Made by a program: the position numbers and the translations under genes. DNA of 64,000 bases from a virus. Below the pieces are notes generated by a model. That model was not told the DNA's origin. It made no database searches and saw only the letters and a list, made by a program, of their open reading frames with translations. Below are positions 5,867-64,000 of this stretch, piece after piece. Where the stretch lies: IMG/VR virus record IMGVR_UViG_3300045988_023906; one strand, 5' to 3'. Each line of letters opens with the position of its first letter. Position 1 is the stretch's first letter.

Positions 5867-7573
5867 ATGAGTGCAGAAGGTAAAGAGTTTAAAGTAAATG
5901 TATCTACCGACAGAGCTACTGCAATAAGTAGCTCTGCTGGCAGTTACCCTAATGTGTTGTATTTCCCTATAGATGATGATAATGTCATCATATTTAATGG
6001 GAACATATATGATTGGAATGCAAGTGTAACTTCCCCCAAGTTAATCTCCTCAGGAGACCTGAATACATATAGGGGAACTCAATATTTAGGTGTTTATTAT
6101 GCCAATTATGGCAATAGTATAAGTAATAAACCTTCTGGAGTATCACAGTTTGCATTACATGTGCTCTTGGAGAATAATGACTCTTCGACTATACAGGTAC
6201 TTTATTCAAAAAACAAGATATATACTAGAGCTTATGAGTCATCTTCTTGGTCTTCTTGGACTGAGATTGGTGCAGGAGGTGTAACTTCTATACCTCAAGC
6301 TTCTAGTTCAGCATTAGGAGGTATAAAGATAGGGTACTCTGATAATGGCAGGAATTATGCTGTAGAGTTGGATAGTTCTGGTAAGGCTTATGTTAATGTA
6401 CCATGGACAGATACAAATACAACATATAATGTTGCTACTGCTAGTGCCAATGGACTTATGAGTTCCAGTGATAAGTCCAAGCTTAATGGAATCCAAGCAG
6501 GTGCAGATGCTGTGTCATTCAGCAGGTCTTTGTCTTCAGGTACAAAGATAGGTACCATTAATATTAATGGTGTCAATACTGACATATATGCTCCAACAGC
6601 AGGAGAGCCAGTTAAATATGAAGTAGCTACCTCAACTACACTAGGATTGGTCAGGATTGGGTATCCTGAGAGTGGTAAGAATTATCCTGTTGAGCTTAAT
6701 TCCTCAAATCAGATGTATGTCAATGTCCCTTGGACTGACAATAACACAACTTACTCAGCAGGAGCTGGACTTAATTTATCAGGAACAGTTTTCTCCCTAA
6801 GGAAGGCAACACCTACTACACTAGGTGGTGTAAAGGTATCCAGCACTGAGATTAACACAATATCTACTGTTGCTGCTACTACTTTTGGTTTACAGAACAG
6901 AATATATCCTGTCCAGCTTGCTTATCCATCAGGTAGTGCAGGAACAGATGGTAATAAGGTACTTTCAGTGTATGTTCCTTGGGAGGATACTACTTATAGT
7001 GTAGTAAGTACCTCAAAGAATGGGTTAGTCAGTATGGATTCTGCATTGGCAGAGCTAGCCTACGAAGATAAGGATGCTGGTAACCTAGGTTCTCTTGCTA
7101 GATTTGGAGAGATGGGCATGTTGGAGGTTTCAACAATTATGGAAGATGACTTAGCTCTGGTTAATAAGAGTAATAGCTGGACAGCATATCAGGACTTTAA
7201 GTCAGGTGCTGGTAATTCAGGCTCTGATATGAGATTCAAAAGGGAAGTCACATGTATGCCTGATGTGCTGGACAATCTGATGTCATTAAATGTCATAAAG
7301 TATATATGGGAACACCCTGATGAAAATGGTATAAGATGCACTTTTGGTGTGAAAGCTGACCAGCTTCTGTCACTAGGTGGTGTATATGCTACTATGGTCC
7401 ACAGCAGAGCTGATAAATATGATACCAAGTGGGTAGAATATGATAGATTTGGTGTGCTGGCAATCAAGGCATTACAGGAGGTTGTAATGAGGAACAAGCA
7501 ACTGGAGAGCAGGATAGAATATCTTGAGGATACGATAAATTCTATGAGAAGAGTATGGGAAGAGAATTCATGA
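5867..7573 (+). CDS. tail fibre with three internal repeats and a C-terminal intramolecular-chaperone (peptidase S74-like) domain
   Basis: Three repeats of xxLGG(I/V)K(I/V)GY..(K/R)NY(A/P)VEL....YVNVPW(T/E)DT.TTY. The tail has SDMRFKREV....YDRFGVLAIKALQEV....LESRIEYLE, like the autocleaving endosialidase-type chaperone. Confidence 0.7.
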   Translation: MSAEGKEFKVNVSTDRATAISSSAGSYPNVLYFPIDDDNVIIFNGNIYDWNASVTSPKLISSGDLNTYRGTQYLGVYYANYGNSISNKPSGVSQFALHVLLENNDSSTIQVLYSKNKIYTRAYESSSWSSWTEIGAGGVTSIPQASSSALGGIKIGYSDNGRNYAVELDSSGKAYVNVPWTDTNTTYNVATASANGLMSSSDKSKLNGIQAGADAVSFSRSLSSGTKIGTININGVNTDIYAPTAGEPVKYEVATSTTLGLVRIGYPESGKNYPVELNSSNQMYVNVPWTDNNTTYSAGAGLNLSGTVFSLRKATPTTLGGVKVSSTEINTISTVAATTFGLQNRIYPVQLAYPSGSAGTDGNKVLSVYVPWEDTTYSVVSTSKNGLVSMDSALAELAYEDKDAGNLGSLARFGEMGMLEVSTIMEDDLALVNKSNSWTAYQDFKSGAGNSGSDMRFKREVTCMPDVLDNLMSLNVIKYIWEHPDENGIRCTFGVKADQLLSLGGVYATMVHSRADKYDTKWVEYDRFGVLAIKALQEVVMRNKQLESRIEYLEDTINSMRRVWEENS

Positions 7574-59604: not shown

Positions 59605-60106
59605 TTGTCATATCTATAGTATAATACCTCTCTTCTTTTTTCAAATCAGGATATTCATGTATTGCCTTGCATACCCAGTAGAACCTTTGATTTGTGCCCC
59701 TTCTTGTAAGTGGGCCATACTCTTCCATATATGGGCCAAGTTTGATATAGTCAAAGTTTTTCAGGTCAATTTCATCAGCCTGAATATCCCTGCCACTATA
59801 CCATGCAACCTTTATATTGTTCCACTCTTTTAAGCCCATGCTACGTTTCTTCTTTACAAACTCTGCAAGCCTGTTTATGCTCTCAGGGTCTGAATCTCCA
59901 CCCATAAATGCAATGCAGGTAATACCCTTATTGGCAAGTACCATCTCCTCTAAAGCATCTTCATCCAATATTTCCCCAATGTCCTCTGCCAAGTAAGGGC
60001 TATGGCAGTTTTTGCACCCATTTTTACATCCTGTAATATTTATACATAATGTAATTTCGTCAGGCACCTCTGCAAATGTTACTTGAGTATTCAAATATTT
60101 CAACAT
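59573..60106 (-). CDS. nrdG: anaerobic ribonucleotide reductase activating protein (radical SAM)
   Basis: ITGCKNGCKNCHSPYL carries the CxxxCxxC cluster, and the gene is adjacent to nrdD. Confidence 0.8.
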   Translation of the reverse strand: MLKYLNTQVTFAEVPDEITLCINITGCKNGCKNCHSPYLAEDIGEILDEDALEEMVLANKGITCIAFMGGDSDPESINRLAEFVKKKRSMGLKEWNNIKVAWYSGRDIQADEIDLKNFDYIKLGPYMEEYGPLTRRGTNQRFYWVCKAIHEYPDLKKEERYYTIDMTSEFWKDETKD

Positions 60107-60788
60107 ATCTTTTAACTATATTAAGGTTATCTATAGGTAGGGGATATTTTTCCACTAAGGTATTAAGATATTCCATATCTCTATCCTTCTTATAAGCAAC
60201 TGCCTCTTCCAAAGTTTTGAAATTTCTATTAACCTTAGCAAACTTCCTCCTCAATCTAACACAATATGTATTATGAGGAGTAAGATAAATACCCTTACCT
60301 ATAGTTGAAATAAAAGTGTTAATCTCTGGAGGTAAGAGAATACAAGTATTAGGAGAGTATATTTTGGGAATATTTAGTATAAGAGATTTGCAATCTTTAT
60401 CTATTTCGAGACTATGACTACTATCTCCATTTTCTTCATACCATCTCCTAAAATTTGAATATATCTTGAACTCTTCTGATACTATTATCCCCTTAGCTCC
60501 ATAAGTACTGTAAGCAGGACATTTAGGGTCATAACATCTCCTCTCCATATTCTTCCAAACATTATAAATATGCTTATCAGTAATAGACTCATCACAGATA
60601 AATCCATATTCATCTCTCTTATCTGGATTAGAGACATTACCATATTGGGCACTATCTAATCTAAAATATAGCCTTCTGGTGTATCCCTCAAAATGTCCTG
60701 TGTAATAGTACCTATTCCTTACTTTCTTTGTTGATTTACCTTCTATTACCAAGACATCACCACAACTTTGTAAAATTTTATCTTCCAT
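60060..60788 (-). CDS. HNH-type homing-endonuclease-like protein with AP2-like DNA-binding domain, inserted between nrdD and nrdG
   Basis: IYNVWKNMERRCYDPKCPAYSTYGAKGIIVSEEF...LEIDKD....YSPNTCILLP matches the W..M..RC.nP....Y..YG..GI.V / (L)D(R)ID..Y.P.NC family. The C-terminal ..YCVRLRRKFAKVNRNFKTLEEAVAYKKDRD is AP2-like. Its 3' end overlaps nrdG by 47 nt. Confidence 0.6.
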   Translation of the reverse strand: MEDKILQSCGDVLVIEGKSTKKVRNRYYYTGHFEGYTRRLYFRLDSAQYGNVSNPDKRDEYGFICDESITDKHIYNVWKNMERRCYDPKCPAYSTYGAKGIIVSEEFKIYSNFRRWYEENGDSSHSLEIDKDCKSLILNIPKIYSPNTCILLPPEINTFISTIGKGIYLTPHNTYCVRLRRKFAKVNRNFKTLEEAVAYKKDRDMEYLNTLVEKYPLPIDNLNIVKRYVEIFEYSSNICRGA

Positions 60789-60850: not shown

Positions 60851-63010
60851 TTATACACCTTTACTATAAACCCTTTTGTTAGCTTCAATCTGCCTATCTT
60901 TACCAAATGATTTAATAGGTCTTAAATACCCTATCACTCTTGTATATTGAGTAATATTCTTACTATGGCACTTTGGGCATTCAGTGATAGGATGCTTAGT
61001 AATGTAGCCACAATCATCACACTTACTATTAGGAATATTAAATGTGAAGTAGTTAGTTCCATTAGCTATTGCAAAGTCTATCAGCTTGAGATACTGCTCC
61101 TTACTCAGGTGGTCTTCAAGATTAATATGAGCTGCACTGCCTCCATCAGTGAATTGATAAGTCTGCCTTCCATGAAGAATAAACTTGTCAAGTACTGAAG
61201 TATCATCATGTGCATCATAGAAGTATGAATTGTACAGATTCTCATCATCAGGAACCCAATATCCATCCTCTTTATCCCAATTATAATTCTTTCCTCCTAA
61301 CCCTTCAGCAGGAACTACCTCAGAATTGAATAGGAATGGTCTATTGGCATCATGGATAGAATGTATCTTGTTCTGCTCTTTGATAGTACCAAGAACCAGT
61401 TGCAGGAACTCAATATACTCCTTGTTGTTGCCAACAGTCATACCTAAGAATCTTGCAGCCTCATTCAAGCCATTGATACCTATAGTACTATACAATTTGC
61501 TGATGTGAATATACCCGCCATTTGAAGCAGCAAACATACCCTTATCTTCAAGTTCATATAGCATTGTCTTAAATGCAACATGGTACTTGTAGACTCTTTG
61601 GAGAATATCTACTAAGTAATCTCTAAGAAATGAAGTATTTTCTTTCCATCCTCCATTCCTCTTCAATCCATAAGCCTTGTTGCAATCCTGCACAATCCTA
61701 TTGATATTAAGAGTGATTACATTGCATGAACCTGTCATTACACCAGTAAGACCTGATGTAGGATTGAAAGTATTCTCTGCAAGCTCATTCCTCAATCTAC
61801 AGCATGATGCAAGACTATCAGCACTGTCTGATATATAGGTGAAGAAGCTATGACCCCCTGCATACATCTCAGCAGTAAAGTCCTTATAGTCTTTATCTAT
61901 AATATCATTGGTCTTAGGGTCATACACCATAGCCATTGTCTCTACAGGGAATGTAAGAATCTGTTTGGTTCTCAGCTTATTGAAGAATTTCATAAACAGC
62001 CTTTGCAGACAGTCTATTGCTTCCCACTGGGGTTTAGTACCATCAGGATAATAGAACTCTCCAAACAGTGAATCAAAGTAAGTATGGTCATAATAAGACA
62101 CATTAGTAAATGGACTTTGATATGACCTATTACCAGCAGGCTGGTTTACACCATAGATAAACTGCTTGAATGCTTTATATATGGCATCTCTTACAGTCCT
62201 CTGCTTACTGCAATGGTCTGTAGTAGTTACTACATCCAACTTTTCATACCAATTAGGACCAAATTCCTGCACAATGTAATAGTTAAGGGCAATAAAGTAT
62301 TCACCTACTGCCACTGCACCTTTACACTGAGAAGATAGCAAGAAGATAAGATTGGTTACTTGACCACTGAATGATTGCAGGTCATTAGGAGGTGTTGGAG
62401 TGATACCATCAATATTGCCAACTCCTTCCATCATAAGAGGATACAGACTCACAGCCATACAATACTGCTTCAAGACAGGAGTAGTTGCTTCATCATGTGT
62501 ATAAATGACATGAGAGTTCAAATCCTCTTCATACTTCTTGGCTACTTCAGGGTACATTTCATTCAGCTTGTCTTTCATTCTTTGCCTCTGAATAACCCTA
62601 TTAGTAGTCTTATATACTTCACCCTCAAGGTTGGCAACATTCTTCATAGTTACATTTGCATTAGCATCTGTTTCTGATGAAGTGGCTGCATTTTCATTAG
62701 ATTGACTATACTCATTCATATAGTCAATTCTTTCCCTAATGAATCTTGCCTGCTTATGCTGTTCCCTATAAATGATATAACTCTTTGCTACATCAAAGTG
62801 TTTGTCATTCATAAGAACATCCTCAACCTTATTCTGTATCTCTTCAATACCTATAGTATCTCCTTCCAAAGTACCAAACAAGGCACCTATCATATCATAC
62901 AGATATTGAGGCATTTTCTTGTTGCAAGACTTAAAGGCTTTCTCTACAGCACTTATAATCTTATCAACATTAAATTCCTCTATACTGCCATCTCTTTTTA
63001 CTACTTGCAT
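60851..63010 (-). CDS. nrdD: anaerobic (class III) ribonucleoside-triphosphate reductase
   Basis: It has an N-terminal ATP-cone (MQVVKRDGSIEEFNVDKI), a C-terminal Zn-ribbon (CDDCGY...CPKCHS) and the glycyl-radical motif TRVIGYLRP. Confidence 0.85.
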   Translation of the reverse strand: MQVVKRDGSIEEFNVDKIISAVEKAFKSCNKKMPQYLYDMIGALFGTLEGDTIGIEEIQNKVEDVLMNDKHFDVAKSYIIYREQHKQARFIRERIDYMNEYSQSNENAATSSETDANANVTMKNVANLEGEVYKTTNRVIQRQRMKDKLNEMYPEVAKKYEEDLNSHVIYTHDEATTPVLKQYCMAVSLYPLMMEGVGNIDGITPTPPNDLQSFSGQVTNLIFLLSSQCKGAVAVGEYFIALNYYIVQEFGPNWYEKLDVVTTTDHCSKQRTVRDAIYKAFKQFIYGVNQPAGNRSYQSPFTNVSYYDHTYFDSLFGEFYYPDGTKPQWEAIDCLQRLFMKFFNKLRTKQILTFPVETMAMVYDPKTNDIIDKDYKDFTAEMYAGGHSFFTYISDSADSLASCCRLRNELAENTFNPTSGLTGVMTGSCNVITLNINRIVQDCNKAYGLKRNGGWKENTSFLRDYLVDILQRVYKYHVAFKTMLYELEDKGMFAASNGGYIHISKLYSTIGINGLNEAARFLGMTVGNNKEYIEFLQLVLGTIKEQNKIHSIHDANRPFLFNSEVVPAEGLGGKNYNWDKEDGYWVPDDENLYNSYFYDAHDDTSVLDKFILHGRQTYQFTDGGSAAHINLEDHLSKEQYLKLIDFAIANGTNYFTFNIPNSKCDDCGYITKHPITECPKCHSKNITQYTRVIGYLRPIKSFGKDRQIEANKRVYSKGV

Positions 63011-63011
63011 A

Positions 63012-63329
63012 TTACAATGTATTTAACCATTCTCTTAAATCATTAGAACCAGTTTCATTAATACCCACAGGAACTCTTGGTCTGGAAGTGAGATAAGAAG
63101 AAAGCTCTTCTCCTATCACAAAAGGACTTCTCATTTCTATTTGGTCATTCTTTCCAAACTTCAATGTACCTGCTGCCTGTGTAAATGGACAAGTCCACAC
63201 CAATGGGACAAGGATTCTCCTATTGACTACAATGAAATCATAGTCAAGCAGCTTGAAGTCTTTGAAGTACTCATCCTTATCCATATTCTGCCTTATAATA
63301 GCCCAATATAGTCTGGCTTGAATATCCAT
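63012..63329 (-). CDS. 3' exon of an intron-split gene; PD-(D/E)XK-nuclease-like C-terminus (tentative)
   Basis: The ORF lies immediately downstream of a group I intron core. The frame is open 7 codons upstream of the ATG (RLIWKIMDIQARLYWAI), and IQARLYWAI looks like a QxxxY motif. Exon 1 lies beyond the window. Confidence 0.4.
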   Translation of the reverse strand: MDIQARLYWAIIRQNMDKDEYFKDFKLLDYDFIVVNRRILVPLVWTCPFTQAAGTLKFGKNDQIEMRSPFVIGEELSSYLTSRPRVPVGINETGSNDLREWLNTL

Positions 63330-64000
63330 TATCTTCCAGATAAGTCGTTAATTTATCTGCGTTCTCTTATGAACTGCTATATGTTACCATATAGATGAGA
63401 CTATATCATCATCCTAATTTCTTAGGAGCCTCGCACTTCCACTCACTTGAGTGTACTCCCATAAAGGGATAGTCGTTGCACCTTCCTTATTATTAAGGCT
63501 TGGCTCAGGATTGTCCTAGAATAACCCATTTATATATTATAGGCTGTTATATTTCAAACAATTTTAGACCTATATATTAAATTTCAAGTCTTAGGATGTT
63601 CCCTGAATTCACGAGGTTTTTTATTATTGCAGATTACTCTGCCGAGATACAATATTCTTTATATTTATTATATTTTCTTTGAAGATATATAGTAGCATCC
63701 TGATATAGATAATCAAGTATTCTTTTACATACATTCTTTCCACTATAGTGAATAGTGACAGCAATAGTAGACTTTCTATGCTTTAGCCCATTATCAACAA
63801 CTCCTACATTATTTATTAAATGCTCTTGCATTTTTCTAAGAGGATTTTCCATTCCAGTAATATTAAATTGGTAAATTAGACTATTTTCAGTTCTATCTTT
63901 TCTTTTTGTTACAGAAAAACAGCCATCACCATCATAATACCCTCTTATAAAATGTCTCATTAATTTATAATCTAATTGAGGAATTTGCAATGTGTAAGTC
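63330..64000 (-). mobile_element. group I intron (3' part; 5' end outside window) carrying a LAGLIDADG ORF
   Basis: On the minus strand, downstream of the ORF, all four core elements appear: P-like gaaTTCAGGGAAcatcc (63591-63610), Q-like cAATCCTGAGCc (63502-63513), R-like gGTGCAACGACTATCC (63467-63482) and S-like GATGATATAGTCTC (63397-63410). Two GNRA-capped hairpins are also present. Confidence 0.7.
63634..64000 (-). CDS. LAGLIDADG homing endonuclease (C-terminal half; ORF open to window end)
   Basis: LMRHFIRGYYDGDGCFSV is a LAGLIDADG motif. The frame stays open upstream of the track's TTG start to nt 64000. Confidence 0.7.
   Translation of the reverse strand, partial: TYTLQIPQLDYKLMRHFIRGYYDGDGCFSVTKRKDRTENSLIYQFNITGMENPLRKMQEHLINNVGVVDNGLKHRKSTIAVTIHYSGKNVCKRILDYLYQDATIYLQRKYNKYKEYCISAE

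Follow-up and report, generated by a model that had tools for sequence, protein, structure and literature searches.

A probable mobile, self-splicing group I intron of the phage type in the PD-(D/E)XK exonuclease gene of a crAss-like gut phage

The window, the whole 64,000-nt stretch of viral DNA analysed here, ends inside an intron that interrupts, on the minus strand, a gene for a PD-(D/E)XK exonuclease. The following features lie at this end:

63012..63326, minus strand: exon 2 of the PD-(D/E)XK exonuclease gene, 104 codons and the stop (spliced-product alignment; DUF3799 across the junction)
63327..64000, minus strand: group I intron, visible part, 674 of 1036 nt (RF00028; identical contigs L004 and L005; intron-less alleles)
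63327..63327, minus strand: terminal G of the intron (omega-G), with the 3' splice site between 63327 and 63326 (joined exons equal the intron-less alleles)
63634..64000, minus strand: LAGLIDADG homing endonuclease gene, C-terminal 121 codons and the stop of a 215-aa protein (Pfam, PHROG)

Downstream of the exonuclease gene lies an uninterrupted nrdD (60851-63010) with ATP-cone and NRDD domains, followed further downstream by an HNH-type ORF and then by a DNA polymerase I reading frame; the genes between, nrdG, dUTPase and aspartyl protease, are named from Pfam and from the GenBank annotation of collinear loci. This is the gene order of crAss-like phages, and the window belongs to a crAss-like, Steigviridae-like gut phage. 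Its relatives among GenBank phages, by BLAST, are bajarodcaudo virus 1 (93%), cr116_1 (86%; Steigviridae, Pamirivirus) and cr85_1 (76%; Steigviridae, Kahnovirus).

Position 64000 cuts off the first 362 nt of the intron, and with them the 5' splice site and 94 codons at the start of the endonuclease ORF. Searching with the 105-aa ORF, we found two metagenome contigs, L004 and L005, that are identical to the window across all 6001 nt compared, and because of this identity the missing 5' part, with the 5' splice site and the exon-1 strand, could be read in L004 (window position = 69330 minus L004 position). The complete intron measures 1036 nt; in window numbering it would run from 64362 to 63327, and L004 4968 marks its 5' splice site. 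Exon 1 ends at L004 4967 with ...GAT TGG AGA TAT, and the exon-1 frame continuing into the intron stops two codons in (GAA AAA TAA).

Joining L004 4227-4967 to 6004-6318 gives a 351-aa protein that shares 79% identity, with 0 gaps, with the exonuclease of cr85_1 (QOR59503), in which the gene upstream of nrdD is a single 347-aa 'PD-(D/E)XK superfamily exonuclease' in GenBank. At the junction, marked here and below by a slash, FVDWRY/DIQARLYW aligns with FVDWNYQIQARLYW of cr85_1. The spliced product matches PHROG 412 'exonuclease VIII' across the junction (4e-16) and Pfam DUF3799 (PDDEXK-like) in a borderline match that also spans it (26.2 bits, cut-off 26). The exonuclease motifs VDLK and QARLY can be read in the sequence, and the latter, the QxxxY motif, begins two codons after the junction. 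An earlier, sequence-only reading had proposed that the gene upstream of nrdD is interrupted, as it is, and that gene is now identified as the PD-(D/E)XK exonuclease. The same reading had taken an ATG at 63329 for the start of the next ORF; the 304-nt gap that it measured between the endonuclease ORF stop (63634) and this ATG is real, and the ATG itself is not a true gene start, the ORF being exon 2.

GenBank annotates this region in cr116_1 as an exonuclease fragment, a 'mobile intron protein' and a 105-aa hypothetical protein, and in bajarodcaudo virus 1 as three hypothetical proteins. Exons 1 and 2 were deposited as separate proteins in MT774389.1 (QOR59372, QOR59374) and PQ006092.1 (XHH63408, XHH63405), the former extended by spurious residues at its C-terminus and the latter begun at a fortuitous ATG, and the ribozyme is unannotated in both records.

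The covariance-model search proposed with the sequence-only reading was clearly positive: the group I intron model RF00028 matched the minus strand at 63377-63670 over its full length (positions 1-253 of 253) with 89.6 bits (E 1.3e-21) against a gathering score of 50 bits, and this was the sole Rfam match in the entire 64 kb window. Related copies scored 80-94 bits. The core elements P, Q, R and S had been named correctly and correspond to the P4 and P7 strands, and all the motifs listed for P4, P7, P8 and P9 are present on the minus strand where they had been placed. The accompanying remark that the non-coding stretch is richer in GC than its surroundings holds against the endonuclease ORF (34.5% versus 27.8%) but not against exon 2 (37.1%), nrdD (37.0%) or the whole window (36.0%), all of which are richer. 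The structural elements of the RNA are as follows:

63644..63657, minus strand: internal guide sequence GAAUAUU-GUAUCUC (7/7 pairs per helix; invariant in 8 distinct copies)
63657-63651, minus strand: P10 guide strand GAAUAUU, pairing with the first 7 nt of exon 2 (GAUAUUC)
63650-63644, minus strand: P1 guide strand GUAUCUC, pairing with the last 7 nt of exon 1 (GAGAUAU)
63629..63642, minus strand: P2 hairpin GCAGA-GUAA-UCUGC, with the endonuclease ORF stop in its loop (found in the unconstrained fold)
63610-63616 with 63429-63435, minus strand: P3 (Rfam alignment, pair counts)
63601-63606 with 63505-63510, minus strand: P4, UUCAGGG / CCUGA (Rfam alignment, pair counts, unconstrained fold)
63592-63596 with 63514-63518, minus strand: P5 (Rfam alignment, pair counts, unconstrained fold)
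63519-63591, minus strand: P5 extension, 73 nt (copy alignment; missing from two related copies)
63480..63504, minus strand: P6/P6a (Rfam alignment, pair counts, unconstrained fold)
63469-63474 with 63399-63404, minus strand: P7, GACUAU / AUAGUC (Rfam alignment, pair counts)
63458-63468, minus strand: P7.1, CCC-UUUAU-GGG (pair counts, unconstrained fold)
63440-63453, minus strand: P7.2, CACUC-AAGU-GAGUG (pair counts, unconstrained fold; compensatory double change)
63412-63427, minus strand: P8, ccuaa-GAAA-uuagg (pair counts; compensatory double change)
63377-63394, minus strand: P9, cuauaug-GUAA-cauauag (pair counts, unconstrained fold; compensatory double change)
63361-63374, minus strand: P9.1 (pair counts, unconstrained fold)
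63337-63359, minus strand: P9.2 (pair counts, unconstrained fold)
10-nt tail after P9.2, ending at G63327, minus strand (sequence)

All fifteen helices, P1 to P10 with P7.1 and P7.2, are fully Watson-Crick or G.U paired in the window's sequence. Across 8 distinct copies of the intron, standard pairs occupy 99.4% of the pair cells, compared with 33-44% in a slid control in which the 3' partners were moved by 1-3 columns. The same copies show three compensatory double changes, one each in P7.2, P8 and P9; they lend real but slender support by covariation, as identity among the copies is 85-100% and all three double changes come from one diverged copy. A minimum-energy fold of 63660-63327 without constraints recovered every helix except the P7 pseudoknot. 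The extra hairpins P7.1 and P7.2 lie between the 5' strand of P7 and the 3' strand of P3, and on this basis we place the intron in subgroup IA (IA2-like, phage type), the type known from T4, SPO1 and Twort.

The AU-rich P5 extension is kept in most copies, whereas a 1-nt loop replaces it in cr116_1 (L002) and about 11 nt in L080; neither copy loses Rfam score (92-94 bits), and the extension is an optional peripheral insertion. The cr116_1 intron was unlisted in a gathering-mode Rfam scan over seven loci, and its apparent absence was dismissed as a loss to the speed filter when L002 4325-4554, scanned by itself with laxer filters, scored 92 bits.

DNA comparison alone allows three equivalent positions for the intron boundaries, because the intron and exon 2 both begin with GA. 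A U at position -1 combined with a G at the intron end occurs at only one of them, and this, together with P10, fixes the boundary at 63327/63326. The junction then reads GGAGATAT/GATATTC as exon 1/exon 2, the ligated exons GTAGATTGGAGATAT-GATATTCAAGCC, G63327 ends the intron, and P10 aligns the 3' exon with 7/7 pairs. P1 likewise forms 7/7 pairs, with a U.G wobble at the 5' splice site, and the two 7-bp helices are adjacent on the guide strand. The intron end had earlier been put at 63330, which is wrong, as P9 is followed by two further hairpins, P9.1 and P9.2, and then by the terminal G at 63327. Alternative 3' splice sites, such as one after G63336 that would insert three residues (KIM), were rejected: intron-less alleles have no such insertion, and P10 fits the 63327/63326 site only.

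The fortuitous ATG at 63329-63327 is in frame with exon 2, and its G is the last base of the intron. Its conservation in all copies, the annotation of both parts as separate genes in GenBank, and the precedent of phage genes that are split yet functional around homing endonuclease genes, such as nrdA of Aeh1, could be taken to mean that the exonuclease gene works in pieces without splicing. The product of exon 1, with two extra codons, and that of exon 2, translated from this ATG, would then form a two-chain nuclease beside a relic ribozyme. We find this barely credible: the ribozyme, the guide, the U.G pair, the terminal G and a perfect 7-bp P10 are all conserved, with compensatory changes among the helices, and one active site would have its D-x-K and QxxxY motifs on two separate chains. 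The conservation of the ATG is already explained by its G, since this is the terminal G of the intron.

The complete endonuclease ORF (L004 5049-5696) starts 81 nt into the intron and encodes 215 aa. The full protein scores 40.0 bits with Pfam LAGLIDADG_3 (cut-off 22.5) and 28.4 bits with LAGLIDADG_1 (cut-off 23.1), and matches PHROG 4645 'endonuclease' at 3e-49; its assignment to the LAGLIDADG family had been made from the fragment in the window, which by itself passes the cut-offs of both Pfam models and matches PHROG 4645 too. Motif 1, WLGFFAADG (residues 22-30), lies beyond the window and motif 2, IRGYYDGDG (residues 111-119), within it. Since there are two motifs, each ending in an acidic residue and Gly, the protein is predicted to be a single-chain enzyme. 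We found no close solved structure in a sequence search of the PDB, where the best matches, I-PanMI and I-AniI, were marginal (E about 3e-3). A candidate promoter of the gene's own, a Bacteroidetes-type TAnnTTTG 24 nt upstream of the ATG, was rejected, with 16 such motifs in the locus against 14.6 expected.

The 3' end of the ORF is built into the ribozyme. Its last eight codons (KEYCISAE) are at the same time the P10 and P1 guide strands and half of P2, and the UAA stop lies in the GUAA loop of P2. The ORF is therefore located in the loop of P1, in agreement with an earlier proposal of a P1/P2 loop extension. The full ORF (215 or 216 aa), with both motifs, is present in 9 of 12 intron copies; the other three, introns of 747, 551 and 448 nt, retain the ribozyme despite internal deletions of the ORF.

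To survey the population, we scanned IMG/VR with the spliced exonuclease protein and obtained 78 loci. The intron is absent from 71 of these and present at the identical nucleotide in seven. Among the intron-less loci, 36 carry exactly GATTGGAGATAT/GATATTCAAGCC and others silent variants; the joined exons of the window's lineage, AAATCCTTTGTAGATTGGAGATAT/GATATTCAAGCCAGACTATATTGG, likewise occur exactly in 36. The seven insertions measure 1036-1038 nt in four loci and 971, 747 and 551 nt in one each, and the GenBank copies in cr116_1 and bajarodcaudo virus 1 measure 964 and 448 nt, respectively. The introns of L081 and L076 are identical to that of the window at 1036/1036 positions and that of L075 at 1035/1036, whereas the exonuclease exons and nrdD around this identical intron are only 72-87% identical. 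Intron-less siblings exist on both sides of the comparison: in their exons, L061 and L055 match L081 and L075 at 89-100% identity, with most stretches at least 95%, and L009 belongs to the window's lineage (98-100% in the exons) and lacks the intron. Identical introns in such divergent backgrounds, together with intron-less siblings, indicate recent horizontal acquisition at a fixed site and recent horizontal spread of the intron.

Exon identity also rises towards the junction, and we considered co-conversion as further evidence of homing. We rejected it, because intron-less siblings share the rise, which therefore reflects conservation of the active site rather than co-conversion; sites that look co-converted amount to only about 2 SNPs within 50 nt of exon 2 in L081.

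In eight intron-less loci, including L010, L011, L013 and L003, the insertion site reads AATTAT/CAAATT instead of AGATAT/GATATT, a clustered change of 6 of 12 nt that encodes NY/QI instead of RY/DI. L010 and L011 are otherwise 97-100% identical to the window's lineage. The variant would weaken P1/P10 pairing and, presumably, recognition by the endonuclease, and loci of this kind may be resistant alleles.

These distributions bear on whether the endonuclease drives the spread. The intron might splice and yet carry a LAGLIDADG protein that is inactive or serves only as a maturase, as LAGLIDADG proteins of some organellar introns do, with the element passing between phages by homologous recombination of the conserved flanks. 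Minimal or absent co-conversion tracts would suit such a course, as would the mosaic nature of crAss-like genomes (L076 switches backbone about 300 nt upstream of the junction) and the loss of most of the endonuclease gene, with the ribozyme kept, from 3 of 12 copies. Against it, four divergent backgrounds carry the 215-aa ORF intact, identical or nearly so and with both D-G motif ends, the insertion falls at exactly one nucleotide every time, and a series from full-length to deleted endonuclease fits the usual homing cycle. We therefore hold spread without homing to be quite unlikely.

We conclude, with a probability of about nine in ten, that the PD-(D/E)XK exonuclease gene of this crAss-like phage harbours a phage-type group I intron that is mobile and self-splicing. 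Computed or observed here, and the basis of this reading, are the match to the RNA family and the helices, boundaries placed to the nucleotide, a spliced frame that stays intact, the presence/absence polymorphism, and one and the same intron in backgrounds that diverge. Splicing catalysis, endonuclease cleavage and the homing pathway we infer from this anatomy and from established knowledge of group I introns, the most likely course being as follows. The pre-mRNA would fold into the P3-P9 core, and GUAUCUC would pair with the exon-1 end GAGAUAU across a P1 loop of about 700 nt, a distance for which help from a protein may be needed. A free guanosine bound in P7 would attack the 5' splice site. 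GAAUAUU would then align exon 2 (GAUAUUC) as P10, G63327 would enter the G site, and the exons would be ligated to an intact mRNA for the 351-aa exonuclease. Because the end of the ORF overlaps the guide and half of P2, translation of the endonuclease and folding of P1, P10 and P2 should be mutually exclusive on one RNA, and the stop codon two codons into the intron would prevent ribosomes that translate exon 1 from entering the ribozyme. The independently started 215-aa single-chain LAGLIDADG enzyme would cut intron-less alleles in co-infecting phages, at a predicted target of about TTGGAGATAT/GATATTCAAGCC, and repair of the cut would copy the intron in.

Within the intron, 36 nt from its 5' end (L004 4994-5005, equivalent to window 64336-64325, beyond the window end), the exon-1/intron junction TTGGAGATAT/GA recurs as a 12-nt copy, TTGGAGATACGA. 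Junction-like matches number 2 against 0.02 expected. The copy is conserved in 12/12 introns, with C as the '-1' base in 11 and T in cr116_1, and it pairs perfectly with the guide sequence, in 11/12 copies without the U.G wobble. Productive splicing at this site was rejected, as an in-frame TAA stands two codons past the true 5' splice site. A role as a decoy that holds the guide, and so times endonuclease translation against formation of the long-range P1, or as a cyclisation site for the excised RNA, is an unlikely proposal; if true, it would add a level of regulation that has not been described for phage introns. More ordinarily, the copy would be a scar of repair, in which a 12-bp duplication flanks a 24-nt filler.

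The closest parallels of the ribozyme are in phages of other bacteria. Its P3-P9 core is alignable at the DNA level with the orf142 introns of Twort (75.7% over about 195 nt) and with the intron of Enterococcus phage EF1 (79.5% DNA identity over 189 nt), and it also aligns with introns of Staphylococcus Kayvirus-type phages, within a range of 75-80% DNA identity together with Twort and EF1. Like the introns of Twort and of related Staphylococcus, Enterococcus and Bacillus phages, it has P7.1 and P7.2 between P7 and P3' and sits in a protein-coding gene of a phage, and as in Twort-type introns a stop codon follows just after the 5' splice site. Unlike these, it is found in a crAss-like phage of Bacteroidota-type gut bacteria and in a PD-(D/E)XK exonuclease gene, and most of its copies have the 73-nt P5 extension. 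The gene in its P1 loop is of the LAGLIDADG type, whereas the intron of the EF1 relative carries an HNH gene.

The td, nrdB and nrdD (sunY) introns of T4, with I-TevI, I-TevII and I-TevIII, are self-splicing members of subgroup IA in genes of nucleotide and DNA metabolism; as here, they hold the endonuclease gene in a peripheral loop and show presence/absence polymorphism among related phages. Many T4-like records matched the intron core in the BLAST search of GenBank phages. The T4 intron endonucleases are of the GIY-YIG or HNH types and lie in other loops, and in the present phage, unlike T4, nrdD is uninterrupted, with the intron next door. Relatives of the endonuclease (29-35% identity, 93-96% coverage) are about the same size, have two LAGLIDADG motifs and are annotated as intron-encoded. 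They include endonucleases from rec-gene introns of Staphylococcus phages, such as I-MsaII, whose target site differs; others are encoded by Lak megaphages and by one other crAss-like phage.

Group I introns with LAGLIDADG-type ORFs have been described within core genes of crAss-like phages, the same virus order (PMC7886860), in the MCP, PolB, primase, ATPase and RNAP genes and chiefly in the Delta and Zeta groups (PMC7886860; PMC10136315), and genomes of the alpha-gamma groups were said to lack such insertions (PMC7886860). Unlike the introns of that report (PMC7886860), the one described here lies in an exonuclease gene and in Steigviridae-like genomes, for which GenBank shows only a 'mobile intron protein' beside two unjoined CDS; we found no published description of an intron in a Steigviridae-like exonuclease gene. 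Selfish elements of this kind are well known, though little described in this host group, and our findings leave current knowledge of how such elements work unchanged. Several public crAss-like genomes list the exons of this core replication/recombination gene as unrelated CDS, an annotation that our findings correct, and the findings show that group I introns are carried by Steigviridae-like gut phages also and not by the Delta and Zeta groups alone. The loci offer a natural series of empty site, full intron and endonuclease-deleted intron. A 100% identical element in backgrounds of about 75% identity is direct evidence of DNA exchange between divergent crAss-like phages in the same cells, and a divergent single-chain LAGLIDADG protein with a defined candidate target may interest those who work on meganucleases.

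Other putative mobile elements were noticed as well. The HNH-type endonuclease ORF noted above (242 aa; 60060-60788, minus strand) lies between nrdD and nrdG and overlaps the nrdG start by 47 nt. It matches PHROG 953 (3.5e-29) and PHROG 374 (3.5e-27), with no Pfam match, and is found in L004-L007 and absent at this place from bajarodcaudo virus 1, cr116_1 and cr85_1. It resembles a free-standing homing endonuclease gene and would be a second mobile element beside the cluster. In some close relatives, a second group I intron (Rfam 80.2 bits; L006 2142-2382, L070 413-653) with a LAGLIDADG_2-type ORF splits the uracil-DNA glycosylase gene, in a region beyond the window end; L004 and L005 lack this intron and have uracil-DNA glycosylase as one 225-aa gene.
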